In this document: positions 1-53,548 of the stretch, piece after piece
Layout of the letters: every line of letters starts with the position of its first letter
Numbering within the stretch: the first letter of the stretch is position 1
Notes under the pieces: generated by a model
What the model saw: the letters and a program-made list of their open reading frames with translations, nothing else
Databases searched by the model: none
Told to the model about the DNA's origin: nothing
From: an uncultured Candidatus Saccharibacteria bacterium
Lineage (GTDB): Bacteria > Patescibacteriota > Minisyncoccia > Phycocordibacterales > JACNGX01
Length of the DNA stretch: 64,000 nt
Assembly (NCBI GenBank): GCA_964621395.1
Contig: CAZULS010000002.1
Location: 23,306-87,305, forward strand
Direction: 5' to 3'
Program-made: the position numbers and the translations under genes

Positions 1-342
1 GTGTTGTATACCGGACCAAACAGCCAGCTTGTGGTGATGAGCATACCTGCGGGGAGCGATATCGGTGAGGAGGTGCATGAGCTTGATCAGTTTATTCGTC
101 TTGAAGAAGGGAAGGGTCAGGCGATTCTGAACGACGAAGTTCATGACATTGAAGATGATTGGGCGGTAGTGATTCCTGCCGGCATGAAGCACAATATTGT
201 GAATACCGGTGAGGAAGCGATGAAGCTCTACAGCGTGTATTCTCCGGCTGAGCATCGCGATGGTGTGGTGCATGCCACGAAAGAAGAAGCGGAAGCCGAT
301 GACGAACATTTCGACGGAACGATTACAGAGCAAGAAACCTAA
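1..342 (+). CDS. Cupin-domain protein, 5'-truncated by the window edge
   Basis: ORF runs from the window start (gtg) to TAA at 340-342. It is a small beta-barrel-like protein with an acidic C-terminus. The cupin assignment is from general sequence character only. Confidence 0.4.
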   Translation: MLYTGPNSQLVVMSIPAGSDIGEEVHELDQFIRLEEGKGQAILNDEVHDIEDDWAVVIPAGMKHNIVNTGEEAMKLYSVYSPAEHRDGVVHATKEEAEADDEHFDGTITEQET

Positions 343-2024: not shown

Positions 2025-4733
2025 ATGATGCCTCCAATGAACAATTTTACGACGAAGGCGAAAGAAGCGATTCGTCGTGCCCATGAGCTTGCCATTGAGC
2101 GCGGACAAAATCATGTCTCGCCGCTCCATCTCATGACCGCGCTCCTCCTTGAAGAAGAGGGCGTGATTATTGCCGCTCTTGAGCGTATGGAAGTGGATAT
2201 TATTCTGCTTTCCGATACCTTGCTTGATGTGATTGAATCGGAGGGTAATGCAAGTGTGTTGTCGCCGTCGTATCAGATATATCTCACTCCCGAGCTTGCG
2301 CAGGTACTTGAAGCGTCGGTGCGGTTTGCGCAGCACATGAAAGATGAATTTGTTTCCACCGAACACCTTTTCTTGGCAATGCTTGATGTGGCAAATCCTG
2401 CTCGTGAGGTGATTGCCCGATTTCGTATTGATAAAGATGAAATGTTGCGCGTGATTGAAGAATTGCGCGATCAGCATATCACCGATGCAACACCGCCGAA
2501 AAAAGCGCGTGCGCTTATGAAGTATGCGCGCAATCTCACGGCACTTGCCGCCGAAGACAAACTCGATCCGGTGATTGGCCGCGATAATGAAATCAGGCGT
2601 ATCATGGAAATTCTCTCGCGCCGCACAAAAAACAATCCGATTTTGATTGGTGAGCCGGGCGTGGGAAAAACTGCCATTGCTGAAGGGCTCGCCGTGCGTA
2701 TTGCCAAGGGCGACGCGCCGGATTCTCTGAAGGATAAAGAAATCGTTGGGCTTGATCTTGGTCTTCTCATTGCCGGAACAAAATTCCGCGGTGAATTCGA
2801 GGAGCGATTTAAAACAGTGATGAAAGAGGTGGAGCGTTCTGAAGGAAAGATTATTCTCTTTATCGACGAGCTTCATACGATTGTGGGCGCCGGTGCGGCC
2901 GAAGGATCGATTGATGCATCGAATATGCTCAAGCCCGCGCTTGCGCGCGGCGAATTGCGCGTTGTCGGTGCCACCACCTTGAAGGAATACCAAAAATACG
3001 TGGAGAAAGACGCGGCGCTCGCGCGCCGCTTCCAGCCCGTGTATATCGATGAGCCGTCTCTTGCTGATGCTGTCGCTATCATGCGCGGACTGAAAGAAAA
3101 GTATGAGCTGTATCACGGCGTGCGTATTACCGATGACGCGATTGTCTCAGCTGTGGAGCTTTCCTCGCGCTATATCACCGGACGTTTTTTGCCGGATAAG
3201 GCGGTAGACCTCGTGGATGAGGCGGCTTCGTCGCTGCGTATTTCGCTTGAAAGTATGCCGCCAGAGCTTGAAGAGACACATCGCGCGGTGATGCGCCTTG
3301 AGGTGGAGAAGGAGGCGCTTCGAAAAGACACCGGCACGGGGATTGACCCGGCGATTGCCAAGAAAGCAAAGGCGCGTTTGCGTGCAATTGAAAAGGAGAT
3401 TGCCGACTTGAAAGAAAAAACGCGTGAAGTGGAGCTGAAATGGAAGAATGAAAAAGAGCTTTTGAACGATATCCGCACGCTGAAGAAAAATCTTGAGAGT
3501 TTGCGCCTTGACGCTGAGAAAGCAGAGCTGCGTTCTGATTTGGGAACCGCTGCTGAAATCCTCTACGGCAAAATTCCGGTTATTGAGAGTGAACTTACTA
3601 CCAAAACAAAGCGCTTGAAGGGTTTGCAGAAGCGTCGCCGTATTCTCAAAGAAGAAATTACCGAAGAGGAAATTGCCGCCGTGGTTGCGCGCTGGACGGG
3701 CGTACCCGTCTCACGCATGCTTGAGGAGGAAACGAAGAAGCTTGCGCGTATGGAAGAGGAATTACAGAAGCGCGTGATTGGTCAGAATGAAGCGGTAAAG
3801 AAGGTGGCTGATGCCGTGAAGCGCTCACGCGTGGGAGTCGGAGACCCAAATCGCCCCATCGGCTCATTTATGTTTCTTGGTCCGACCGGTGTCGGGAAAA
3901 CCGAGCTTACGAAAGCACTCGCATCGTTTATGTTTGATGATGAAAGAGCGCTGGTACGCGTGGATATGTCGGAATACATGGAACGTCATTCCACGGCGAA
4001 ACTCCTGGGCGCGCCTCCTGGGTACGTTGGCTACGATGAAGCGGGACAATTGACGGAAGCGGTGCGCCACCGTCCGTATTCGGTGGTGCTCTTTGATGAA
4101 ATTGAGAAGGCGCATCCGGAAGTGTTTAACGTGCTTCTTCAGGTATTGGATGAAGGACAGCTCACCGATTCCAAAGGACGCACCATCAACTTCAAGAATA
4201 CGATTGTGATTCTCACTTCCAACATCGGCTCCGAGCACATCGATCGTATGCAAACCATCGGATTTTCCAATGGCGATGAGAAGGAGGATTATGATGACGC
4301 GAAAGATAAGGTGATGAACAGTTTGCGTGATCATTTCCGTCCGGAATTCTTGAATCGCCTTGACGATATTGTGCTCTTCAATATCCTTTCGGAAGAGACT
4401 GTGCGTGATATTGTGGATGTGCAAATCGCTATCGCAGAGAAACGTCTTGCCGAAAAAGACATTGTGCTTTCGGTGACACCTGCGGCGCGTACGCTTATGG
4501 GGAAGAAAGGATACAATCCGCAATACGGTGCGCGTCCGCTCAGGCGCTTGGTGCAGACGGATATTCTGACACCGGTGGCAAGTGCTATGATCGACGAAGG
4601 CATTATGAATGGCGGAAAAGTGACCGTGGACGTGAAAGGCGATGAGCTTGTGGTGAATGCCGAGGCGAAGAGAAAGAAGTCTCGAAAAACGACGAAGAAG
4701 CCGGCAGCGAAAAAAACGGCGAAGGTGGGGTAG
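2025..4733 (+). CDS. clpB: ATP-dependent chaperone ClpB (two AAA+ modules with coiled-coil middle domain)
   Basis: N-terminal Clp repeats, Walker A GEPGVGKT and a second GPTGVGKT, a long coiled-coil M domain, a sensor region, and a Lys-rich tail. Start could be 2025, 2028 or 2037. Confidence 0.93.
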
Positions 4734-4858
4734 GGGAAACGGTAGATGAGCTTAAAAAGGAGAATAGGAGATTACAAATTAAGGATTAAAAAAGGACACC
4801 CGCGCCGCGGGCGTTTGGGTTGCGACATGCAAAAAACATGTTACAATACCTCCCACTT

Positions 4859-4942
4859 GCGTCGGTGGCGGAGTGGTCAATCGCAGCAGACTGTAAATCT
4901 GCCGGCTTTATGCCTACGTTGGTTCAAATCCAACCCGGCGCA
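4859..4942 (+). tRNA. tRNA-Tyr (anticodon GTA), type II with long variable arm; CCA not encoded
   Basis: Acceptor GCGTCGG/CCGGCGC with one G-U pair. Anticodon stem-loop GCAGA-CTGTAAA-TCTGC. Variable arm CGGCTTTATGCC. T arm GTTGG-TTCAAAT-CCAAC. Discriminator A. Confidence 0.75.
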
Positions 4943-4985
4943 CAAATAAAAGAGCCCTTTATGGGCTCTTTTATTTGTGCGCCGG
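4936..4985 (+). terminator. Long perfect palindrome/terminator overlapping the tRNA-Tyr 3' acceptor strand
   Basis: ccggcgcacaaataaaagagccc-ttta-gggctcttttatttgtgcgccgg forms a ~23-bp stem. Confidence 0.6.
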
Positions 4986-5031
4986 GAGCAAGCCAACTGC
5001 TTGGCTTGCGTTCGGATTTAAATATGAATTA

Positions 5032-5457
5032 TCATTCGGGACGTATCAGCTTGAAAGCGGGACTATAATCTTCAGAGAGATAGCGCGGACCTTTCCCGAG
5101 CTCCTTTTTCACAAGTTTTGCCTTTTCGAATTCATATCCTTTTTCTTCCATTTTTTGATAGATTTTAATGACCTCAGGAGATACGCCGTAATCACTCTCG
5201 AAATTAAGATTATTATTGATACAATATTGAAGGACTTTTTCATACAACAGCGTTCCGTATCCTTTCCCGGACTCTTGCACACTTACATTAGAAATTTTGA
5301 GAGTGTCACCGTGTTTTTCAAGTACCATACCACCTATATTTTCTGGCAAGGTAACGAATACAGTGTCCCCTGTATCTTCTATCTGTATATCATCTAATGA
5401 TACGTATTCTGACCGAGATGGTGAATTTTCAGAAATGTTCTTCATACTACATATCAT
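5032..5457 (-). CDS. GNAT-family N-acetyltransferase
   Basis: Q-x-x-G-x-G acetyl-CoA motif (VQESGKGYGTLL) in a 141-aa protein of typical GNAT size. Confidence 0.6.
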   Translation of the reverse strand: MICSMKNISENSPSRSEYVSLDDIQIEDTGDTVFVTLPENIGGMVLEKHGDTLKISNVSVQESGKGYGTLLYEKVLQYCINNNLNFESDYGVSPEVIKIYQKMEEKGYEFEKAKLVKKELGKGPRYLSEDYSPAFKLIRPE

Positions 5458-5536
5458 AACAGGAATAGTCGCCTTTTATAACCCTCTGGGTTTTTTCTTT
5501 TGAAACACCATAAAAATGCGGTATCATTAAAGCATA

Positions 5537-6316
5537 ATGAAAAAAGCACATGCAGTGGCTCTGTTTACCTATCTCCGCAAAACGGCGGCGTTTGTTTTTT
5601 TGATTGCACTGTTGGCTATTACCGCGGACGTGCTAAGGTTTGTGACAATGATTGCTGCGTCACCGACAATTGGCCCGGCGGGTACTTCACTCGATCGTCC
5701 GTATGAGCAGGACATTCCCGGGGCGGACATGCGTATTCTCATTGCAGGTGACAGCACTGCCGTGGGTGTGGGTGCTTACACGCCAAGAGAAACTATTGCC
5801 GGAAGGTTGGCGGAGGATGTTCCGGACGCTGCTGTTGAGAACAGTGCGGTATCGGGAGCAAAGATTATTGATGTGATAGAGCAGTTTGATACTATTGAAG
5901 GGAGATACACCATGATTCTCGTCCAAGTTGGGGCTAATGATATTATTTACTTTTCAGACGAGTCGGAAATACAAGCCCAAGTAGGGGATATGATGAGTGA
6001 GGCGTATAAACACTCAAGTACGATTGTTGTGTTGGCGCCATTTGATGTGAGTATTGTCCCGCTTTTGCCACGTGTGTTGAGCCCTGTCTTTGCGACACGC
6101 TCCTCAGATATTTTGGGAGTCATGAAAGAAGTTGTGGAAGAGAAGGGAGGTATATTTATCGACTTGTATAAAAGCGAGGAAGAAAAGCAATTTGCGGAAC
6201 ATACCGATACATTTTTCTCGGCAGATTCTTTCCATCCGAGCAGTGATGGGTACGCACTCGCATACGAACGTATCAAAAAAGAATTGTGTGAGCGTGAGAT
6301 ATTGTGTGTGGAATAA
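5537..6316 (+). CDS. SGNH/GDSL-family hydrolase with N-terminal TM/signal segment
   Basis: Block I ILIAGDSTAVG (GDS), block III GANDI, block V DSFHPS (DxxH). N-terminal hydrophobic helix. Confidence 0.75.
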   Translation: MKKAHAVALFTYLRKTAAFVFLIALLAITADVLRFVTMIAASPTIGPAGTSLDRPYEQDIPGADMRILIAGDSTAVGVGAYTPRETIAGRLAEDVPDAAVENSAVSGAKIIDVIEQFDTIEGRYTMILVQVGANDIIYFSDESEIQAQVGDMMSEAYKHSSTIVVLAPFDVSIVPLLPRVLSPVFATRSSDILGVMKEVVEEKGGIFIDLYKSEEEKQFAEHTDTFFSADSFHPSSDGYALAYERIKKELCEREILCVE

Positions 6317-6370
6317 TTGTGTTTGATATGGTATCGTATGGTGACCGTATTGTTTTGTGTTAGAACATAC

Positions 6371-6441
6371 GGGAGATTAGTTAAGTGGCATAACAGCGGT
6401 CTCCAAAACCGCGGTCGGGGGTTCGATTCCCTCATCTCCCG
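6371..6441 (+). tRNA. tRNA-Trp (anticodon CCA); CCA tail not encoded
   Basis: Acceptor GGGAGAT/ATCTCCC. Anticodon stem-loop GCGGT-CTCCAAA-ACCGC. T loop TTCGATT. Discriminator G. Confidence 0.8.
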
Positions 6442-6450
6442 CCCTGCACC

Positions 6451-6480
6451 AAACACCACTCCCGAAAGGGAGTGGTGTTT
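6451..6480. terminator. Bidirectional terminator hairpin (aaacaccactccc-gaaa-gggagtggtgttt)
   Basis: Perfect 13-bp stem between tRNA-Trp (+) and the 3' end of the pfkB-like gene (-). Confidence 0.6.
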
Positions 6481-6499
6481 GGATTTCGCTTAGTTTAAT

Positions 6500-7492
6500 C
6501 TATACGATCTTCTTCGGTTCGTAGTCTGTGGGGCGGTTTGCCAGGTATTCTTCTAGCTTTTCGCGGGTGAGAAGACCTTCTTGCGCGCCAATACCTTGGA
6601 CAACCGACATGGAATTGATTGGTCCCCACATAAGCGCTTCGGATACCGGCTTGCCCAACACAAGCGCTGAGGTGAAGGTGCTTGAGAATGAGTCGCCGGC
6701 ACCGGTGCGTTCATACGGCGGAGCAGGATCCGGATACGGTGGCATAAACCATACACCTCCTTCTTCCGCAGCGTAGGCGCCTTTCGGTCCGTCGGTAATC
6801 ACTGCAATATTGGGGCCGAGTGTACGCATCTTTTGAGCAAGCTCTTCGGGTGAGCTATCGTCATCGCCGAGAATGAGCCGTGCCTCTTCCACATTACAGA
6901 AAAATACTTCTGTCTGCGCGTATAAGTCTTTGAGTTTTTCATAACCGAGCTTGATCTGGAACGTCCCGGGCTGGAATGCCAATTTCACATTCGGATGCTC
7001 TTCACAGTATGTGGCGATGGCGTGGTGATAGTCCATGGAGTTTTCACCGACGGAAGAGAAGTAAATCCATTTTGGCTCGCCGAGATCAGGGAGCGTGTAG
7101 TCGTATTCCTCATGCTTGATGAGAATGGTGCGCTCTGCCTTGTGCCAAAGAACATAATGATAATTGCTTACTTTGCCGGGATGAACGGTGATGAAGTCGC
7201 CCTCGACACCGTTTCCCTTGAGTGTCTCTATATCCTCCTTTCCATGTGCATCGTCGCCGAGATCGGTGACGAGTGCCGAGCGAAGACCAAGACGTGCGGC
7301 AGATACCGCGGCATTAGCGCTGTTGCCCACAGCCGGAACGACCGTTGCCGACTCAAACGGAATTTTTGAGCCATTGGTAAGACAGATTTTTTCCTCCTTT
7401 TCTTCTTCGTCGAAAAAAACACTTGCGTGATTGATGCGAATAAAGACGTCGGTAACCGTGTCGCCGATAGCGATGAAATCAAATTGCTCCAT
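6500..7492 (-). CDS. PfkB-family carbohydrate/nucleoside kinase (ribokinase-like)
   Basis: N-terminal IGDTVTDVF and Gly-rich region, plus the C-terminal anion-hole motif ERTGAGDSFSS (the DTxGAGD signature). Confidence 0.8.
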   Translation of the reverse strand: MEQFDFIAIGDTVTDVFIRINHASVFFDEEEKEEKICLTNGSKIPFESATVVPAVGNSANAAVSAARLGLRSALVTDLGDDAHGKEDIETLKGNGVEGDFITVHPGKVSNYHYVLWHKAERTILIKHEEYDYTLPDLGEPKWIYFSSVGENSMDYHHAIATYCEEHPNVKLAFQPGTFQIKLGYEKLKDLYAQTEVFFCNVEEARLILGDDDSSPEELAQKMRTLGPNIAVITDGPKGAYAAEEGGVWFMPPYPDPAPPYERTGAGDSFSSTFTSALVLGKPVSEALMWGPINSMSVVQGIGAQEGLLTREKLEEYLANRPTDYEPKKIV

Positions 7493-44551: not shown

Positions 44552-46690
44552 CTAACTCCTATCCTCTATCACCTCCATATCAAGCGAACGGGTGGCGATG
44601 TCGGCGCGGACGAGACGCACGCGAACATGATCGCCCACGCGGTAGCGCTTTTTGGTGCGTTGTCCCACGAGTGCATACTGTGCTTGATCGTACTCATACA
44701 TGTCATCACTTAGTGTGCGCACGTGTACCAATCCATCGCCGAGTGTTTCTGCCTCTTGCACGAAGAAGCCGAAGTTGGTCACACCGGAGATGGTACCTTC
44801 AAATTCTTCTCCCACGCGGCCTTTGAGATATTCCACTTGCTTATATTTCACAGACGAACGCTCCGCTTCAGCGGCTTTTGCTTCGCGTTCGGAGGCGTAC
44901 CGCGTCATCACTTCGTAGCGCTCGAGCTCTTCTTCACTCGCACGATTTTCCGCAAGTTCGTGTGCAAGCAAACGGTGCACCATGAGATCGGGATATCGGC
45001 GAATAGGAGAGGTGAAGTGTGTGTAATGCTCAAAAGCAAGTCCGTAGTGTCCGATATTGTTTGTGGAATAGATTGCCTTTGCCATGGAGCGAATAGCCGC
45101 GGTGGTGATCACACGTTCTTCCTCAGAGCCTTCAATTGCTTTGAGAAGCGTGTTGATATCGCGAGAATCCGGACCTTCACCTTCTTTGCCAAGCGGCAGG
45201 TCATAGCCGAGTGTTTTCACAAATGTAGCAAGCTCGGCAATGCGGTCTTCGTTGGGGACATCATGCACGCGATACACAAAAGAATCAGCCACTGCCGGAT
45301 TGGCACGGTCGATATACTCAGCTACGCGCTTATTCGCCAGAAGCATCAAATCTTCCACCAATTTGTGAGCGGCGAAGCGTTCTTTTATTTTCACCCCTGT
45401 GGGCACACCACTTGCATCCAGCGTGAATTTTACTTCTTGTGTTTCAAAGGCGATGGCGCCTTTTTCAAACCGCTCTTTGCGGAGCGCTTCAGACACCGCG
45501 TTGAGCGAAGTGAGCGCTTCAGTGTGCGGACTCTCGGCACCTTCAAGCACTGCTTGTGCATCTTCATAGGTGAAGCGCTTGTCGGAATAGATCACACTGC
45601 GACCAAACCATTCCTTGGTAATATCCACAGCACCTCTCCGAAGTGCCGTGCGGTCAATTTCAAAGACGGCAGAGAAGGCGAGTTTGTCTTCTTCCGGATT
45701 CAAACTGCATACATCATTGGAAAGCACTTCCGGAAGCATCGGGATGGTGCGGTCTACCAGATACACTGATGTGGCACGTGTGGCAGCCTCGGCATCAATA
45801 GCGCCACCGGGTGTCACATAGTGTGAGACATCGGCAATGTGCACGCCCACTTCGATTGTCTTCTCATTTATCACACGGAAGGAAAGTGCGTCATCAAAAT
45901 CCTTCGCATCTTCCGGGTCGATGGTGCAGGTGAAGATATCGCGCATATCACGACGCTTTGCAATTTCTTCTTCCGAAATACTCCGATCAATGAGCGAAGC
46001 CTCGCGTTCTACCTCTTCGGGAAAATCAGGAGCAATACCGCGTTCGAAACACACAGCGCGCATTTCTGTTTCGTGATCGCCCGCCATACCGATACGCTCA
46101 AGCACCTGGCCTTTTGGGGTGGTGTTGGCGTCATTCCATGGATGCATGTTCACATACACTTTCTCGCCTTCGCGCACGGGCGTGGTGTCGTCTGTGATAC
46201 AAATCTTCACATACATGCGATTGTCATCAGGGACGACAGACGTGCCACATTCTTCTTTCACCACGGTGCCCACAAAGCGCATGCGTGTGCGGGTGATAAT
46301 CTCTTCCACACGGCCCTGTATTTCACCGCGCATGTTTTTGCCTGTGGTGTGCACGCGGACGATATCACCATGAAAAGCGGTGCCCAAATGTTCCGGCTCA
46401 ATGCGCACACGCTCGGTACTCTCAGACGAAAGGGGAATATATCCCACGCCTTTACCGGTGATGGAGATGATTCCTTCCAGCTCTTTTGTCTTTATCTTTC
46501 CGCGCTTCGGCTTGCCCGTCATTCCTTTGCCTGCGCCCGCTTTCGGGTGGGCAGGCTTGCCCTTAGCGCCTGAAAAACCCCGACGTGAATCGGATTTCGT
46601 GCCCGGGCGTTTCTTTGAAGCGCCTTTTCGAGGAGCCTTGCTCCCTTTAGATTTGAATTGTTTCATTGTGCGCAGTATAGCAGAAACCAC
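44552..46690 (-). CDS. rnr: Ribonuclease R / RNase II-family 3'-5' exoribonuclease
   Basis: Cold-shock/OB N-region, RNB domain (HIADVSHYV), a C-terminal S1 domain, and a Lys-rich N-terminal extension. Start is possibly at the internal Met ~46666. Confidence 0.9.
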   Translation of the reverse strand: MVSAILRTMKQFKSKGSKAPRKGASKKRPGTKSDSRRGFSGAKGKPAHPKAGAGKGMTGKPKRGKIKTKELEGIISITGKGVGYIPLSSESTERVRIEPEHLGTAFHGDIVRVHTTGKNMRGEIQGRVEEIITRTRMRFVGTVVKEECGTSVVPDDNRMYVKICITDDTTPVREGEKVYVNMHPWNDANTTPKGQVLERIGMAGDHETEMRAVCFERGIAPDFPEEVEREASLIDRSISEEEIAKRRDMRDIFTCTIDPEDAKDFDDALSFRVINEKTIEVGVHIADVSHYVTPGGAIDAEAATRATSVYLVDRTIPMLPEVLSNDVCSLNPEEDKLAFSAVFEIDRTALRRGAVDITKEWFGRSVIYSDKRFTYEDAQAVLEGAESPHTEALTSLNAVSEALRKERFEKGAIAFETQEVKFTLDASGVPTGVKIKERFAAHKLVEDLMLLANKRVAEYIDRANPAVADSFVYRVHDVPNEDRIAELATFVKTLGYDLPLGKEGEGPDSRDINTLLKAIEGSEEERVITTAAIRSMAKAIYSTNNIGHYGLAFEHYTHFTSPIRRYPDLMVHRLLAHELAENRASEEELERYEVMTRYASEREAKAAEAERSSVKYKQVEYLKGRVGEEFEGTISGVTNFGFFVQEAETLGDGLVHVRTLSDDMYEYDQAQYALVGQRTKKRYRVGDHVRVRLVRADIATRSLDMEVIEDRS

Positions 46691-46732
46691 TTTTGCTTGC
46701 CAGATGTGCGAGGGTGTGCTAGGATATGCCCC

Positions 46733-47269
46733 ATGTTAAAAATACGTTTACAACGCGTTGGCCGTAAACATGACCCGTCTTTCCGCGTGGTGGTGACGGA
46801 TTCTCGTTTCGCTGCTCAGAGTGGTAAGGCGCTTGAAGTACTCGGTTCATATAACCCGCGTTTCGATAACCCAACACTCAAAGAAGATCGTATCAAGGAA
46901 TGGATTGCCAAAGGTGCGCAGACATCCGGTACGGTACACAACATCCTCGTTGGCGCAGGTATTATTGAAGGGAAGAAGGTGAATGTGCTCCCGAAGAAGG
47001 CACCGATTAAGAAGGAGAATGAAGACCAAAACGCCGACGAGTCGGCATCGGTCAAGGAGGCAGAAGCGGAAGCTCCGGTGGCGGAAGAAGCATCGTCTGA
47101 GACACCAGCTGACCAAAATTCCTCTGAAGAGGAATTGGTCAAGGAAGAAGCTGCACCTGAAGCTCTAGCTGAAGAGAAGGCAGAAGAGACATCTCAAGAA
47201 GAAGCACCAACTGAAGCTGAAGCATCTGAAGATGCACCGGCTGAAGAGGAAGAGAAGAAAGAAGAGTAA
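46733..47269 (+). CDS. rpsP: 30S ribosomal protein S16 with long acidic C-terminal extension
   Basis: MLKIRLQRVGRKHDPSFRVVVTDSR S16 core. The ~90-aa Glu/Ala-rich tail contains the in-frame palindromic element at 47025-47062. Confidence 0.88.
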   Translation: MLKIRLQRVGRKHDPSFRVVVTDSRFAAQSGKALEVLGSYNPRFDNPTLKEDRIKEWIAKGAQTSGTVHNILVGAGIIEGKKVNVLPKKAPIKKENEDQNADESASVKEAEAEAPVAEEASSETPADQNSSEEELVKEEAAPEALAEEKAEETSQEEAPTEAEASEDAPAEEEEKKEE

Positions 47270-47282
47270 TATAATAATCCAA

Positions 47283-47390
47283 AAACAGCCTGACACCACT
47301 TTTACATTTCTTTTCAAGAAACACCGTCTCGTGACGGTGTTTCTTGAATCATGATATAAACGTCTTCGTAATCGAAAGTGGTGTCAGGCT
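47283..47390 (+). terminator. Nested terminator: 21-bp outer inverted repeat enclosing a 13-bp hairpin
   Basis: aaaacagcctgacaccacttt ... aagaaacaccgtc-tcgt-gacggtgtttctt ... aaagtggtgtcaggctgtttt. Confidence 0.6.
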
Positions 47391-47472
47391 GTTTTGTGTT
47401 TGACCCAACAATTCCCAACGTGTATTCTAGAGGAAGGAATTTGTTTTTTCTAACACTTAATCATACAACGCT

Positions 47473-47748
47473 ATGCAGGTACAAATGATTACTGTGGTCT
47501 TTTTGATGTTTACCACAATTTTTGCTTGGGGTTTGAGCGCAAGCATGGAGGATGAGGGATTTAAATGGAAAGGTCTCTCGGGTATGTTTCTCATCATTGT
47601 TCTGTTTTGCGGAACAGTTGGGGTACTTCCTTTTGCGCTTCCCCTTGATCAAGTGGAGGCACTTGCGTCCCCGTTAGCTATTGTTGCCTTCTTGGCATAC
47701 GTAGTTCCTTTGTTTGCTCACCGAAGACAAAAACACATCGCATCCTGA
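47473..47748 (+). CDS. Small membrane protein, hypothetical (91 aa)
   Basis: Three hydrophobic helices. Confidence 0.35.
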   Translation: MQVQMITVVFLMFTTIFAWGLSASMEDEGFKWKGLSGMFLIIVLFCGTVGVLPFALPLDQVEALASPLAIVAFLAYVVPLFAHRRQKHIAS

Positions 47749-47843
47749 GAGGTGCGATTTTTATTTGACTCCCCAACACAAAAAAGGTATGTTTTAGAGC
47801 ATTATAGTTCCTTAATTTTGAATGTAACTTAAACAGGAAGACG

Positions 47844-48131
47844 ATGGTAGACATACATCCTTTTCTCCTAGCCACAATTGTATTACTTCTTGTGGCAGGA
47901 ATGTTGTATTCGTTTGAAAGGACCAGACTCCTTTCTTTTGTTCCGAATATAATTGGCGTTTTCTTTTCTGGCCTTACGGGAGTACATATGTTTAGTGAGG
48001 GTCTCCATGATACGATGGCCCCTCTATTTTTCTTCTCCCCTGTGTTGGTGATAGCCGGGACAGAGTTTCTTCTTGCCTTTCTGTTCAAAAAAGCAAAGAA
48101 GGCATTGACACAAAAACCATGCACTGAGTAA
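47844..48131 (+). CDS. Small membrane protein, hypothetical (95 aa)
   Basis: Hydrophobic helices, similar in style to the preceding ORF. Confidence 0.35.
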   Translation: MVDIHPFLLATIVLLLVAGMLYSFERTRLLSFVPNIIGVFFSGLTGVHMFSEGLHDTMAPLFFFSPVLVIAGTEFLLAFLFKKAKKALTQKPCTE

Positions 48132-48219
48132 AGCATGGTTTTTTTATTTGCATTGATTGTGATTTTCAAGTACAATAGGGCACATATCGTACTGTGAGGT
48201 ACGAATACATTATTGATAA

Positions 48220-48594
48220 TTGTTGCATATATACCATATGGAAGCAGATCAAGCTTTTTTGGAGTTTGTTGTAAAGGCGATTGTTGACAATCCGGACGCT
48301 GTGAAGGTCGATCGTAAGACCGACGACATGGGCGTTCTTCTCACTCTCGATGTCGATCGTGAAGACATGGGTAAGGTAATTGGAAAGAGCGGAAACACCG
48401 CAAAGTCGATTCGTACGCTCCTCCGCGTTGTGGGCATGAAGAATGACGCACGCGTAAACCTTAAGATTGAAGAACCTGTTGGCGGTCTCCGCGACACCGG
48501 TAGCTACGGTGGGGGAGAAGCTCCGGCAGGAGACAGTGCTCCGTCTTCAGCAGCGGCAGATCTCGACGCTGCAATGGACGCACTCAAGGACTAA
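48220..48594 (+). CDS. KH-domain RNA-binding protein (YlqC/UPF0109-like), part of the rpsP-trmD operon
   Basis: KH GXXG loop in VIGKSGNTAKSIRTLL, and the conserved position after rpsP. Confidence 0.75.
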   Translation: MLHIYHMEADQAFLEFVVKAIVDNPDAVKVDRKTDDMGVLLTLDVDREDMGKVIGKSGNTAKSIRTLLRVVGMKNDARVNLKIEEPVGGLRDTGSYGGGEAPAGDSAPSSAAADLDAAMDALKD

Positions 48595-48650
48595 AGCGAC
48601 TAAAAAAGAAAAAAATCCTATAACATTGCCAAGGTAATGTTCGGATATAC

Positions 48651-48726
48651 AAAAAAGTGCCCAAAAGGGCACTTTTTTGCAGCACATAAGAACACACGCG
48701 CAAGCTAAAGCCTGCGCGTGTGTTCT
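48651..48726. terminator. Two consecutive terminator hairpins at the left boundary of the AT-rich island
   Basis: aaaaaagtgcccaaaagggcacttttttgc and gaacacacgcgcaag-ctaaag-cctgcgcgtgtgttc. Confidence 0.6.
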
Positions 48727-48881
48727 TTCAAGTACAAAGAATTATAATTATATAATTCCTGTAAATCACCGGCTTCTAAAGAGTACGGAAAGATGTTATA
48801 ATGTGAAAAATATTGTATTGAGCGTAATATGGAAGCAGACAAAGAGAATACTTTACATCAATACATTCTTAAACTAAGAAT

Positions 48882-49862
48882 ATGGCAAACAAAAATTCAG
48901 CACAAATGATAACGGGGAAATCTTTCGAGTATGCTCTTCTTGTTTCGTTTGAGGATAAGTTAAAGAGTAAAACCAACCTTGAAGTAATTAAGAACTCAGC
49001 TTTTTATGTTGCAAAAAGTTGTTTCGACAGTGTCTCTCCGAGCAAAAGAAGCGAGTATCTTTTATCAGCAAGTTTTGCTGTGAATTTTCTAATGGATATA
49101 GAACCTAGACTCTCAAACGATATGGGCAAAGATGATGTTCTTCAGCTTGAAATTTTATCTGATGATTATGGTAAGACAGGCGATGTTCGTGATGTGCTTG
49201 CTATCAGATTACTTCAGAAATGGGAAATTGGAGTTTCTGCAAAGAATAACCATAAAGCAGTTAAACATCCGCGACTATCTTCAGATATAGATTTTGGTGA
49301 TAAGTGGCTAGGCATTAAGGCGTCAGAAAAATATTTTGATGCAGTGGTGCCCATATTTGACCTTCTTAAGAAGATTAAAAAAGAGAGTGAGGGAAAGAAA
49401 AAATGGAATGAACTAAAAAATTATCACGCAGAGATATACGTACCAATCCTTCAGGCATTTGTAGAGGAGTTGAGAAGTCTTTATAAAAAGAATCCTAAAA
49501 AGGTAGCCTCAAATTTAGTTGCATATCTTGTTGGTAATAGGGATTTCTATAAGGTAATCAAGGGCAAGAACTCTGTAGAAATTCACGCTTATAATTTGAA
49601 CGGGACATTAAATTTACCTTTCAAGGAAATTCAGCCAAAATACAAGACCCCTAAAGTTCCTCTTCCTACGGAGATTACCGATATAGTCTTCAAAACCGAC
49701 AGTGATACAACAGTAATAGTTACTATGAACAATGACTGGACACTATCTTTTAGGATTCATAGTGCAAGTTCTAGAGTCGAACCATCTTTAAAGTTTGATA
49801 TAAATCTATTGAAGTCACCAAAGAAATTATTCAAGAATACACTGAATATCAGTCACGATTAA
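48882..49862 (+). CDS. Putative Type II restriction endonuclease (partner of the adjacent GGCC-type m5C methyltransferase)
   Basis: A 326-aa Lys-rich protein with no recognisable catalytic motif. Its stop is 3 nt before the MTase start, so the two are translationally coupled. Size and context match HaeIII-family REases. The assignment rests on association. Confidence 0.5.
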   Translation: MANKNSAQMITGKSFEYALLVSFEDKLKSKTNLEVIKNSAFYVAKSCFDSVSPSKRSEYLLSASFAVNFLMDIEPRLSNDMGKDDVLQLEILSDDYGKTGDVRDVLAIRLLQKWEIGVSAKNNHKAVKHPRLSSDIDFGDKWLGIKASEKYFDAVVPIFDLLKKIKKESEGKKKWNELKNYHAEIYVPILQAFVEELRSLYKKNPKKVASNLVAYLVGNRDFYKVIKGKNSVEIHAYNLNGTLNLPFKEIQPKYKTPKVPLPTEITDIVFKTDSDTTVIVTMNNDWTLSFRIHSASSRVEPSLKFDINLLKSPKKLFKNTLNISHD

Positions 49863-49864
49863 CT

Positions 49865-50842
49865 ATGAAATTAGTATCTTTGTTTACAGGCGCAGGAGGG
49901 CTTGATCTCGGATTTGAAAAGGTCGGTTTTCAGGTTATTTGGGCAAATGAATTCGATAAATCAATATGGAAGACTTTTGAACATAATTTTCCACATACAA
50001 AATTAGATAAGAAGAGCATCACAGAAGTTCAATCATGTGAAGTACCGGACGCAGACGGGTTTATTGGCGGACCTCCTTGTCAGAGCTGGAGTGAAGCAGG
50101 TGCCGGACGAGGGATAGACGATAAGCGTGGACAACTCTTTCATGATTATATTCGTCTTCTAAAGGATAAACAGCCGAAGTTTTTCCTTGCTGAAAATGTA
50201 TCCGGCATTCTTCATCCCAAACATTCGGAAGCTTTTTCAAATATTATCAAGGAATTTGAGAACGCAGGATATGTTGTGTCTCAAAAATTATTAAATGCGA
50301 ACGATTATGATGTTCCACAGGATAGATTACGTGTCATCATCATTGGATATCACAAGGATCTAGGAAAGAAGTTTGAATTTCCTGAGCCACAAATATATAA
50401 ACCTGTTCTCAGGGACGCTATTTATGACTTGCGCAGAGCGAAGCCGGCCAAAGATAGGAACAAGACAAATGGTGAGAGTTTGGAAATACCGAATCATGAA
50501 TATATGAACGGCGGTTTTTCGACGATTTACATGTCTAGAAATCGTGTGCGAGCTTGGGATGAGCCATCATTTACAATACAGGCAGGTGGTCGTCATGCGC
50601 CAATTCATCCACAGGCCCCGAAAATGAAATTCATCGAACAAAATAAAAGAATCTTTGTCCCTGGGTACGAAGATAAGTATCGTCGGCTGTCTGTTCGAGA
50701 GTGCGCGAGAATCCAGACGTTTCCGGATGATTTTATATTTAAATATAACGATGTTGCGAATGGATATAAAATGATCGGTAACGCTGTGCCAGTTAATTTT
50801 GCGAAGCATATTGCACGGAAGATAATGGATGATTTAGTATAG
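49865..50842 (+). CDS. DNA (cytosine-5)-methyltransferase, M.HaeIII-like
   Basis: Motif I LFTGAGGLDLGF, motif IV GGPPCQSWSEAG, motif VI FLAENV, motif VIII QDRLRVIIIG, motif X GNAVPVNF, in a 325-aa protein with a short target-recognition domain. The overall sequence strongly recalls the HaeIII/NgoPII GGCC group. Confidence 0.9.
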   Translation: MKLVSLFTGAGGLDLGFEKVGFQVIWANEFDKSIWKTFEHNFPHTKLDKKSITEVQSCEVPDADGFIGGPPCQSWSEAGAGRGIDDKRGQLFHDYIRLLKDKQPKFFLAENVSGILHPKHSEAFSNIIKEFENAGYVVSQKLLNANDYDVPQDRLRVIIIGYHKDLGKKFEFPEPQIYKPVLRDAIYDLRRAKPAKDRNKTNGESLEIPNHEYMNGGFSTIYMSRNRVRAWDEPSFTIQAGGRHAPIHPQAPKMKFIEQNKRIFVPGYEDKYRRLSVRECARIQTFPDDFIFKYNDVANGYKMIGNAVPVNFAKHIARKIMDDLV

Positions 50843-50846
50843 AGAT

Positions 50847-52784
50847 ATGAGAATTATAGAACGTATAGAAATCGCCTATTTTCGCTCTTTTCCTGAAAGT
50901 ACGATTATAAAAGATTGCAGGGACTTGAATGTCTTTTCTGGTGCGAATGATTCGGGAAAATCAAATATTCTTAGAGCATTAAATCTCTTTTTTTCGGAAA
51001 CGAAAACAGATTTTTATCAGATGATTGATTTTGAAAAAGATTTTTCTAAAGAGAGAGAGAATGTCGTTACGAAAGACACGGTGAAGGGTAAGAAATTTTT
51101 TCGTATCAGTATCTTGTTTAACAAAAAAGGTCTCGGCATATCCTCAACTGTTCTACCGGATTCGTTTTGGGTTGAGAAGGTTTGGGATAAAGAAGGTTCA
51201 ATGACTTCTAGAAAAACGAAGAATGGTAAACGACAACTTATATATGATGATGGTGCTAGCAAAAGGCAGACAAAGGTAGAGACTGCCACGACGATGTTTT
51301 TGAAAAAAATAGATTTTGCCTATGTCCCAGCGATAAGGGATAAATCTTTTTTTGACTATTTGAAGAAGGAATACCAAGATTCTCTTGGGCGCAAAATTTC
51401 TCGTCTGACTAACATTGCTACAGACGATAAGAGGACCATTGAAGAGTGGCTGAATATTTTAACAGTTGGTGACTTAACTGAGCAACTCGATAAAAAGATA
51501 GATCAGGAGTCAAAGGCTCTTATGAAAAAATTTAAAGAGTATACTCATGAGATAAAAGAGTCCGCCTTTTCTATCCCTAATTTAAAACTTGATTTTTCAC
51601 AAGTCCTTGAGATTGCAACTGAGCAGAATATCTACCTTCCTTTTCGTGGTGATGGGGTTCAGGCGAAATTTATTCCACAGATAATGACGGAGATTACGAA
51701 GAATAAAAAGACCCCAATTGTCATATGGGGCTTTGAAGAACCAGAAAATTCACTGGAATATAGAAATGCCCAACAGTTTGCCGAATTACTTCTCAGTGAG
51801 AGCTTAAAGGAAAAACAAGTGTTCGTTACTAGTCATGCATTTAATTTTATTGCCCTACAAGGTGAAAACGTATCTCAGTATAGAGTCTATAAAGGTGAGA
51901 AAAATGAAACGAATATTACCTCTTTGAACGTAGAACAAAGTTCTATTTTTGAAAAAAGCGATAGAGACCTTTTGTCAGAGGAGTTGGGTGTTTTTGAGTT
52001 AAACAATGAACTGAGGTCAGTCTATAGCCTGAAAATTAATGAGATAAATCTCTTTAAGGAAAAAAAGTCAGAATACGAAAGACTGTTATCTTCCAGACCA
52101 GACAAGATATTTATTTGTGAAGACTCAAAGCCAAACATTGTTTCTTTGTGGGAGAGGTTTTTGGTGGACCTTGATATTCAGGACGTCAAAGTTATGTCAT
52201 CCGAAGGTTCAACACAAAATATTGTCGAATTAGGAATTCTTCATCAGAAAAAGCTTGATCCAGAATATAATCCATCTGTATTTAGGCAAATTGATAGAGA
52301 CGGACTAACTGATGGTCAGATGAAGGCTCTTGAAGAAAAACTCTTTAGGCAATTTAAGAGAGATATAAAGAAATATGAGTATTCTTTTCTTCCTGTTAAC
52401 GAGATTGAGAATTTTGCGGTTATTCAGAAAGAAGATATTTTCAATGGAGATTTTTGGAAAGTAAATCAAAAAAAGATAGAGGATAAATTTATGAGTACAG
52501 TAGAGGGAAGTTCGAAAAAGTTCTCAAAACTATTTGACACAGAAACTGAGAAAAGAGAATGGTTATTATTTCGGGATAAGGGTGGCGGCTTCTCTTCTGT
52601 TTATAAAGGGATGAGAGACTTCGCACAAAAAGACGGGAATAGATTTTTTCCTGGTAAAGATATTTGCAAGGAGATAGATAATTTCTCAGGAATTACTTTT
52701 TTAACTCACCTTGCTCCAGAGACATATTCGGAGGATTTGAAAGAGTATCTTAGTAGTATTAAAAATTTTTTTGAAGAATCATAG
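50847..52784 (+). CDS. ABC-type ATPase (AAA_15/AAA_21-like) fused to a C-terminal Toprim/DUF4435-like nuclease domain; OLD-family / fused PARIS (AriAB)-like / Gabija GajA-like defence protein
   Basis: N-terminal IERIEIAYFRSF and Walker A GANDSGKSN (nt ~50941-50967), Walker B/D-loop IVIWGFEEPENSLE, H-loop VFVTSHA. The C-terminal domain has a conserved Glu in IFICEDSKPN (nt ~52110), DxD in RQIDRDGLTD (nt ~52290), and FLPVNEIENFAV. The start is 4 nt after the MTase stop. Confidence 0.7.
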   Translation: MRIIERIEIAYFRSFPESTIIKDCRDLNVFSGANDSGKSNILRALNLFFSETKTDFYQMIDFEKDFSKERENVVTKDTVKGKKFFRISILFNKKGLGISSTVLPDSFWVEKVWDKEGSMTSRKTKNGKRQLIYDDGASKRQTKVETATTMFLKKIDFAYVPAIRDKSFFDYLKKEYQDSLGRKISRLTNIATDDKRTIEEWLNILTVGDLTEQLDKKIDQESKALMKKFKEYTHEIKESAFSIPNLKLDFSQVLEIATEQNIYLPFRGDGVQAKFIPQIMTEITKNKKTPIVIWGFEEPENSLEYRNAQQFAELLLSESLKEKQVFVTSHAFNFIALQGENVSQYRVYKGEKNETNITSLNVEQSSIFEKSDRDLLSEELGVFELNNELRSVYSLKINEINLFKEKKSEYERLLSSRPDKIFICEDSKPNIVSLWERFLVDLDIQDVKVMSSEGSTQNIVELGILHQKKLDPEYNPSVFRQIDRDGLTDGQMKALEEKLFRQFKRDIKKYEYSFLPVNEIENFAVIQKEDIFNGDFWKVNQKKIEDKFMSTVEGSSKKFSKLFDTETEKREWLLFRDKGGGFSSVYKGMRDFAQKDGNRFFPGKDICKEIDNFSGITFLTHLAPETYSEDLKEYLSSIKNFFEES

Positions 52785-52879
52785 CCAATAATTTATCTCC
52801 TTTCCGATATTTGCATTCTCAGGAAGACCAGATCTTAGAGAGTGCGAATATGAGGAGAGTAGATTCGTAATTCGTAACT

Positions 52880-53548
52880 ATGCATTTTCATGTGATTACA
52901 ATTTTTCCTGAGATGGTGCGGGGGTATGTTGACTCTGCGCTTCTTTTGCGTGCGCAGAAGGAGAAAAAGATTTCCGTGTCGTGTTATGATCCGCGAGATT
53001 TTACGAAAGATAAATGGCGGAAGATTGATGACCGTCCGTATGGGGGCGGGCCTGGTATGGTGATGGAAGCGGAGCCTATTTTGAAGGCGGTGAAGAAGGC
53101 GCGAGGGAAAAAGCTTGTATCATCGAAGACCGGCCAAGGGGAAAAGGTGAAGACGATTATTGTGTCGCCGCGCGGTGAGCAATTTTCAAATGACATGGCG
53201 GAGAAATGGGCGAAGCGCTACGACCATCTCGTGATTATTTCGGGGCGGTATGAGGGGATTGACGCGCGTGTGAAAAAGGCGCTTCGGGCTGAGGAGATTT
53301 CTATGGGGCCGTATGTTCTTACCGGCGGGGAAGTGCCGGCAATGGCGATTATTGATGCGACGGCGCGACGGATTCCGGGAGTTCTTGGAAATGAAGAATC
53401 GCCGGAGGAATACCGAGTAGCTTCGGGGGAGACATACACCCGTCCGGAGGTATTTACCTATGAAGGAAAACAATATCGCGTGCCGAAGGTGCTTCTTTCG
53501 GGGGATCATGGTGCGATAGAGGAGTGGAGACGGAAAAGCTCCAAATAA
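52880..53548 (+). CDS. trmD: tRNA (guanine37-N1)-methyltransferase
   Basis: MHFHVITIFPEM, DDRPYGGGPGMVM, and the SPOUT-knot region ISGRYEGIDARV. Confidence 0.92.
   Translation: MHFHVITIFPEMVRGYVDSALLLRAQKEKKISVSCYDPRDFTKDKWRKIDDRPYGGGPGMVMEAEPILKAVKKARGKKLVSSKTGQGEKVKTIIVSPRGEQFSNDMAEKWAKRYDHLVIISGRYEGIDARVKKALRAEEISMGPYVLTGGEVPAMAIIDATARRIPGVLGNEESPEEYRVASGETYTRPEVFTYEGKQYRVPKVLLSGDHGAIEEWRRKSSK

Follow-up and report, generated by a model that had tools for sequence, protein, structure and literature searches.

Genes that couple an ATP-binding cassette (ABC) ATPase to a nuclease have already been described as embedded members of larger defence operons: PrrC, HEC-01 and HEC-04 (the latter two both in Hma systems) and merged AriAB. 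PrrC (EcoprrI) lies in a type I restriction–modification (R-M) operon and serves as a fallback once restriction is inhibited by a phage. Lists of systems combining such an ATPase with a Toprim nuclease include AbiL, and RloA and RloB are R-M-linked open reading frames (ORFs). HEC-04 is an ABC ATPase–Toprim fusion found inside Hma systems, and both its Walker A motif and its nuclease site are needed for defence (Payne et al., bioRxiv 2024). PARIS is detected by the joint presence of DUF4435 (PF14491) at 27 bits or more and AAA_15/21 (Rousset et al. 2022). The subject of the present analysis is a gene, here called X, in a stretch of 64,000 nucleotides (the window) from contig CAZULS010000002.1 of an uncultured Candidatus Saccharibacteria bacterium. 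X encodes a 645-residue protein in which an ABC ATPase is followed by a Toprim-like C-terminal domain, and it stands immediately downstream of a type II R-M pair. An earlier sequence-only reading of this DNA described OLD-class and PARIS proteins as either solitary or partnered by a helicase, a view outdated by the embedded PrrC, HEC-01, HEC-04 and merged AriAB genes. The reading favoured here, at a probability of roughly 0.6, is that X belongs to the OLD superfamily as a single-chain protein, an ATPase sensor joined to a Toprim nuclease, and likely provides a second layer of the abortive-infection type beside R-M.

X is a real gene, since it has 778 homologues and the identical protein occurs on two further independent metagenome contigs with unchanged neighbours. 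The reading frame and all seven motifs quoted by the sequence-only reading are present in their places (table 1), as is the spacing of 4 nt that it gave between the methyltransferase stop and the X start (TAG-agat-ATG). Endonuclease and methyltransferase are themselves separated by 2 nt and form a cognate pair, as expected of a type II R-M system; the family name of this HaeIII-type pair would imply the recognition specificity GGCC. The neighbours of X are the endonuclease, the methyltransferase and trmD, so that X has the single-gene setting without helicase or reverse-transcriptase partner. No GajB (UvrD-type helicase) gene was found beside X or in the cassette among the ORFs, in the domain scan or on the homologous contigs. 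No reverse-transcriptase gene was found near X, and a scan with Rfam gave tRNAs only.

The N-terminal domain was expected to be an AAA_15/AAA_21-type ABC ATPase of the OLD/GajA/AriA group, and Pfam, PADLOC, PDB profile and Foldseek comparisons all bear this out. AAA_15 (PF13175) matches with 64.6 bits (cut-off 32.1) and AAA_21 (PF13304) with 38.2 bits (cut-off 27); SMC_N is also matched. Invariance was judged on 64 full-length homologues of 30–55% identity. Across these, the signature-like GDG and D269 are invariant, and the Walker B motif reads EEPE. X therefore possesses the Walker A, Walker B, signature-like and H-loop elements that mark an OLD-superfamily ATPase, and the ATPase is intact. 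A helical insertion lies within the domain at residues ~166–232. When the 64-homologue profile is compared with the PDB, GajA is the best match (E 3e-12) and Thermus OLD is also recovered. Foldseek with the full AlphaFold model returns the retron-Eco8 effector, GajA and Thermus OLD at E 1e-14 to 1e-16, in alignments that cover both domains. PADLOC matched 48 families, the best 25 of which were considered; the ATPase gives weak matches of 40–62 bits to AriA, AbiLi, NsnB, GajA, HEC-01A and Old, and the C-terminus is left unmatched. NCBIfam yields sub-threshold matches only, to the retron Eco8 effector and MAD3. At member level the ATPase fits none of the named families.

A long helix links the ATPase to the C-terminal domain (residues ~395–645), which is modelled with a pLDDT of 95.4 and has the order β-α-β-α-β-α-α-β-α followed by a helical bundle. 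The Toprim signature is recognizable in this model: a glutamate after β1, a DxD motif after β3 and a four-stranded β/α core. All homologues keep D483 and D485, and at least 90% keep R484; E521 and N522 are invariant, with E519 again conserved in at least 90%. The acidic residues are spaced by 58 and 36–38 positions, similar to those of AriB (E26-D88-E122), which are 62 and 34 apart. In structural comparison of the domain, the values obtained were 8.4 and 160 for PH0156 (2p62), 7.8 and 147 for the C-terminal region of Burkholderia OLD, 7.3 and 144 for AriB, and 7.3 and 143 for Thermus OLD. The C-terminal domain is thus likely to be a divergent relative of the OLD and AriB Toprims, and the modelled two-metal site is probably intact. 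To judge from profile comparisons, it belongs to no described Toprim family. Sister clades (P0009–P0038) lend the Toprim assignment independent support: with ATPases 42–53% identical to that of X, they carry a different C-terminal domain at the same position, with the motifs vED, FDFD and EIENLL in the pattern E...DxD...ExE(N/H). This domain is annotated as the OLD-like Toprim PF20469 in P0035 and P0036, and the two sister C-terminal types are mutually homologous (hhalign 99.7%). The sister clades (loci L007, L008, L010 and others) look like cases of effector-domain replacement, or of very fast divergence, on one ATPase scaffold.

The family of X is rare. An exhaustive HMMER search with the C-terminal domain recovered 85 clusters among 1.84 billion representatives, each of which is either a fragment or a protein of 536–698 residues that ends in this domain. 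Neither this search nor the C-terminal HMM run on all ORFs of 125 loci revealed a split or standalone, AriB-like form; short matches to the domain seem to be pieces of proteins cut by contig ends. Members are seen in Paceibacterota, Saccharibacteria, a Deltaproteobacteria metagenome-assembled genome, Spirochaetota, Pirellulales, Acidobacteriota and Chitinophaga, so the family is scattered over many phyla. None was found in the viral contigs of IMG/VR, the phages of INPHARED or the plasmids of PLSDB.

The proposed link to R-M genes recurs in other genomes. The C-terminal HMM marks 45 distinct loci, and in at least 13 of them an R-M operon contains or adjoins X: nine are of type I, three of type II and one of type IIG. 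The type I loci have the order hsdM-X-hsdS (L003, L006, L011, L013, L085, L093, L095, L105 and a partial L119), typically with a 4-nt overlap upstream of X and overlaps of 4–44 nt downstream. The three type II arrangements are the window itself (R.HaeIII-M.C5-X), L106, where an N6/N4 methyltransferase and a BsaWI-like endonuclease precede X with a 2-nt gap, and L109, where X overlaps the gene for a TdeIII-like endonuclease. In L087, X is divergently oriented to the gene of an Eco57I/MmeI-like type IIG enzyme. Because these reading frames overlap or nearly abut, X is predicted to be co-expressed with the R-M genes of its operons. Genes for AbiH, PDC-S50, PDC-S05, HNH or Fic proteins adjoin X at other loci. 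Among single-chain relatives at large, whose C-termini differ, 17 of 65 loci carry type I or Dcm genes no more than 4 kb away, a lower bound given the limited seed set.

Further genes accompany X at some of these loci. Fic genes and a PDC-S05 candidate share type I operons with X (L003, 11180-12316; L085, 4472-5572; L006, 6379-7416), and a Fic gene adjoins X in L114 (4331-5086); type I operons with X can hold several passenger genes together. Two unrelated loci have a gene of the RmuC family shortly after X (L086, 9039-10082; L109, 3041-4405), in L109 behind the TdeIII-like endonuclease gene; chance may account for this, or it may be one more association.

Analogy with PARIS, P2 Old, GajA, HEC-04 and PrrC suggests how such a protein may work, including its nuclease activity, trigger, target and backup role. 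(i) The N-terminal ABC ATPase would act as sensor and switch, connected by the long helix to a metal-dependent nuclease of the Toprim type. (ii) The ATPase dimer would sense an infection cue, and a phage counter-defence, for instance an anti-restriction protein, is a plausible one. (iii) Binding or hydrolysis of ATP would then license the fused nuclease to cleave nucleic acid of the host or of the phage, perhaps tRNA (the substrate of AriB, P2 Old and PrrC) or DNA (that of GajA). (iv) The outcome would be growth arrest or destruction of nucleic acid. Embedding in an R-M operon would provide co-regulation, co-transfer and complementary coverage, and possibly triggering by anti-restriction proteins. 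X may plausibly serve to back up R-M. It probably functions autonomously, as many relatives are solitary and the partner R-M systems are mutually unrelated.

Several results weigh against this reading, and most of them concern the C-terminal domain. Residues 361–645 match nothing in Pfam, NCBIfam or PADLOC at E<=10 except, by chance, DUF6279 at E 0.14; in particular, PF14491, PF20469, PF13707 (RloB), AriB and Old do not match the domain even at that threshold. A profile search of the PDB with the C-terminal alignment produced chance matches only (ribokinase, Csm2, E 0.1–0.5). Foldseek with the domain alone gave no PDB match below E 0.05, and its top matches were receiver-like or flavodoxin-like. 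The exhaustive HMMER search retrieved the family's own members, with no AriB or OLD among them. In hhalign, the domain aligns to the two sister-clade Toprims with probabilities of 2% and 14%; the same weak alignments place ICED against vED/TEG and IDRDG against FDFDxxG in the right register, and are not statistically convincing. Neighbourhood data weigh in the same direction. At least 13 loci have housekeeping or unannotated neighbours only, examples near X being dut/rmuC, ychF/COQ7, a comM-like gene, genes for an MCP and a TonB receptor, and ETF; R-M is consequently not required, and the backup role has the standing of an association. The claims of the sequence-only reading about this domain fared accordingly. 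Its Toprim-like acidic triad stands in so far as the residues are conserved at Toprim positions, and falls short in that no Toprim sequence profile matches; its label 'DUF4435-like' fails by sequence. As the C-terminus has no AriB, Old, PF14491 or PF20469 match, membership of PARIS, GajA or class 1 Old, the three families between which that reading had hesitated, is not claimable.

The alternative that survives best is an obligate guard of the PrrC type. X would be held latent through contact with the methyltransferase, HsdM or HsdS and freed when a phage inhibitor disables the enzyme, so that endonuclease, methyltransferase and X would form the true three-component unit suggested by the sequence-only reading. 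In 12 loci the coupling to R-M is tight, and X nearly always follows hsdM without an intervening gene and overlaps hsdS, which fits this model, as do the position of X 4 nt behind the methyltransferase gene in the window and the precedent of PrrC/EcoprrI. Yet the partner to be guarded varies, from type I HsdM/HsdS through HaeIII with a C5 enzyme, an N6/N4 methyltransferase with a BsaWI-like endonuclease and a TdeIII-like enzyme to a divergently encoded type IIG protein, and it is difficult to envisage one conserved interface that would serve enzymes so unrelated. Many relatives, moreover, have no R-M gene among the neighbours examined. With the partner type varying and at least 13 loci in housekeeping or unannotated surroundings, an obligate unit is unlikely, and an autonomous single-gene system is favoured over a physically coupled one.

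A broader proposal would make the family a dedicated, general 'R-M guardian', whose unannotated Toprim variant and ATPase insertions would have evolved either to track whether unrelated R-M enzymes of types I, II and IIG are functional or to recognize phage proteins directed against them. Embedding in R-M operons would then define a distinct fifth OLD-like class. The proposal is doubtful. If true, it would describe a portable add-on that makes any R-M operon two-layered, in Candidate Phyla Radiation (CPR) and other small-genome, CRISPR-poor organisms.

It is improbable that X is a true but divergent merged PARIS (AriAB) that senses Ocr-like DNA mimics and cleaves tRNA. The PARIS detection rule rejects X for want of a DUF4435 match. 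Least probable of all is that the C-terminal domain is not a nuclease but a regulatory or Mg-binding module, receiver-like or flavodoxin-like in fold, of an ATPase with another role (such as DNA repair or R-M regulation).

Table 1. Coordinates of X, its domains and motifs, and the surrounding features of the window.
Feature	Residues of X	Position in window	Strand	Basis or remark
khpA (KH-domain protein), left flank		48220..48594	+	PF13083 E 3.4e-21; 95.6% nucleotide identity to L123
Cassette (endonuclease, methyltransferase, X) in variable slot khpA-trmD		48595..52878	+	GC dip; other content in sister genome L123
Two tandem strong hairpins, khpA/cassette boundary		48650..48727	+	-49 kcal/mol, z -9.4; inverted repeat I3
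Type II restriction endonuclease, HaeIII family		48882..49862	+	PF09556 E 3.1e-97; PADLOC REase_II E 1e-100
C5 cytosine DNA methyltransferase		49865..50842	+	PF00145 E 5.2e-99; TIGR00675 E 5e-84
X, ABC ATPase + Toprim-like protein	1-645	50847..52784	+	ORF; full model pLDDT 83.7
ABC ATPase domain	4-333	50856..51845	+	AAA_15 E 1.7e-17
Motif IERIEIAYFRSF	4-15			present in N-terminus of X
Walker A GANDSGKSN	32-40	50940..50966	+	N34, K38, S39, N40 invariant
Walker B / D-loop IVIWGFEEPENSLE	291-304	51717..51758	+	E297, E298, P299, E300, E304 invariant
H-loop VTSHA	327-331	51825..51839	+	T328, H330 invariant
Long linker helix, ATPase to C-terminal domain	370-415	51954..52091	+	DSSP on model
Toprim-like four-stranded β/α core	418-530	52098..52436	+	
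ICEDS (in ICEDSKPN, 423-430)	423-427	52113..52127	+	E425, D426 invariant; directly after β1 (strand 420-424)
DxD, D483-R-D485 (in IDRDGLTD, 482-489)	483-485	52293..52301	+	directly after β3 (strand 477-482)
N518-E-I-E-N522 (in FLPVNEIENF, 514-523)	518-522	52398..52412	+	three residues past β4 (strand 509-514)
C-terminal helical bundle	534-645	52446..52781	+	near-invariant G603-K604
trmD, right flank		52880..53548	+	PF01746 E 1e-43; 92.3% nucleotide identity to L123

RpoB encoded in the window shares 97% identity with a protein labelled 'Parcubacteria group bacterium' and 81% with one of Candidatus Yonathbacteria, which makes the host a member of the CPR/Patescibacteria. The genomic slot that holds the R-M-X cassette is variable. 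The cassette spans ~3.9 kb and has a GC content of 0.38, against ~0.47 in its surroundings. The sister genome L123, in which khpA and trmD are 92–96% identical to those of the window at the nucleotide level, has other genes between them (4222-6999): the toxin gene pemK, a gene for a dpnI-like methyl-dependent endonuclease and small ORFs. Because flanks this similar enclose different content, the khpA-trmD slot is a variable defence hotspot and R-M-X a horizontally acquired cassette. The only slot sequence common to both genomes is an identical hairpin of 27 nt (48650-48676). It is the first of two in tandem and is terminator-like, with an A run and a U run on its sides; the second has arms of 19 nt. 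At the borders of the island, neither flanking direct repeats nor a tRNA integration site were found. A terminator scan of the interval between the X stop and the trmD start (52785-52879) detected no terminator-like site, so read-through from the acquired cassette may now transcribe the essential trmD.

Other peculiarities of the same operon were noted upstream and at the slot. Between rpsP and khpA there are two small ORFs whose products resemble membrane proteins (47473-47748; 47844-48131), and the stretch 47290-48163 has no counterpart in L123 and constitutes a second small indel. Ribosomal protein S16 is called at 174–203 residues depending on the start codon (46658-47269 in the window; 3164-3700 in L001). 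Bacterial S16 is typically ~80–90 residues long, and the protein of the host lineage thus bears a long extension. In many bacteria, rimM sits at the khpA-trmD position; it is found between these genes neither in the window (48594-52880) nor in the sister genome.

Beyond the generic AAA_15 label, the X family is invisible to Pfam, NCBIfam and PADLOC, and defence-annotation pipelines would therefore miss its nuclease half. The family and its sister clades illustrate how one ATPase scaffold is seen carrying different Toprim variants, and with X the embedding known from type I R-M and Hma is seen in ordinary type II R-M operons as well. For Patescibacteria, whose defence beyond R-M is little known, X provides a tangible candidate for layered immunity, and the compact ~3.9-kb cassette offers a clean test case for layered R-M and abortive defence in CPR bacteria.

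Comparison with individual systems places X near several of them and assigns it to none. Some candidates were set aside at once: MADS3 matches at E 3.5e-4 and at the N-terminus only, RecF and SMC repair ATPases match only over the first ~45–110 residues, and the retron Eco8 effector (class 3 OLD) model NF038234 of NCBIfam scores 28.8 bits against a cut-off of 250, with no reverse transcriptase present. With class 1 OLD (the P2 Old type), X shares the single chain of ABC ATPase and then Toprim nuclease and the lack of a helicase or reverse-transcriptase partner, and Thermus and Burkholderia OLD are among its best structural matches. It differs in that the PADLOC Old model PDLC02358 covers only residues 2–202 (E 9.3e-8), that neither PF20469 nor any other Toprim profile matches, and that its family was not found in phage, viral or plasmid collections and is often embedded in R-M operons; the Old models give no match over the full length. 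GajA of Gabija is the best PDB profile match of the ATPase and a full-length structural match, whereas its models leave the Toprim region of X unmatched, and the lack of an adjacent GajB gene led to its rejection. From PARIS and merged AriAB (class 4 OLD-like), X differs in passing AAA_15 and not PF14491 (E<=10) or PADLOC AriB; canonical AriB, moreover, is freed from an AriA hexamer, which a fused protein cannot do likewise. With the defining tests for PARIS, GajA, the Eco8 effector and Old failing, the X family is a new sequence variant within the known single-chain OLD/PARIS-like group.

The two-gene and embedded systems stand at a similar distance. AbiLi is the second-best PADLOC match and covers the whole ATPase (E 3.9e-13), but AbiL (AbiLi/AbiLii) and RloA/RloB are two-gene systems, and the C-terminus of X does not match RloB (PF13707). 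PrrC, like the relatives of X, is an ABC-ATPase–nuclease gene in a type I R-M operon; it carries an anticodon-nuclease domain in place of the Toprim-like one. In its operon prrC stands between hsdS and hsdR, unlike X, which stands between hsdM and hsdS. HEC-04 resembles X as a single-chain ABC ATPase–Toprim protein within a multigene defence operon. That operon is Hma and not R-M, however, the C-terminal domains belong to different sequence families, and HEC-04 is absent from the best 25 of the 48 PADLOC families matched, so that any match is weaker than E 7e-7. Nothing in X contradicts current concepts: the architecture of ABC-ATPase sensor and Toprim nuclease is known from class 1 OLD and merged AriAB, and the embedding in defence operons from PrrC and HEC. 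What is new is a small, sequence-isolated and unnamed family, with an unannotated Toprim sub-family, that is tied to R-M operons of types I and II alike.

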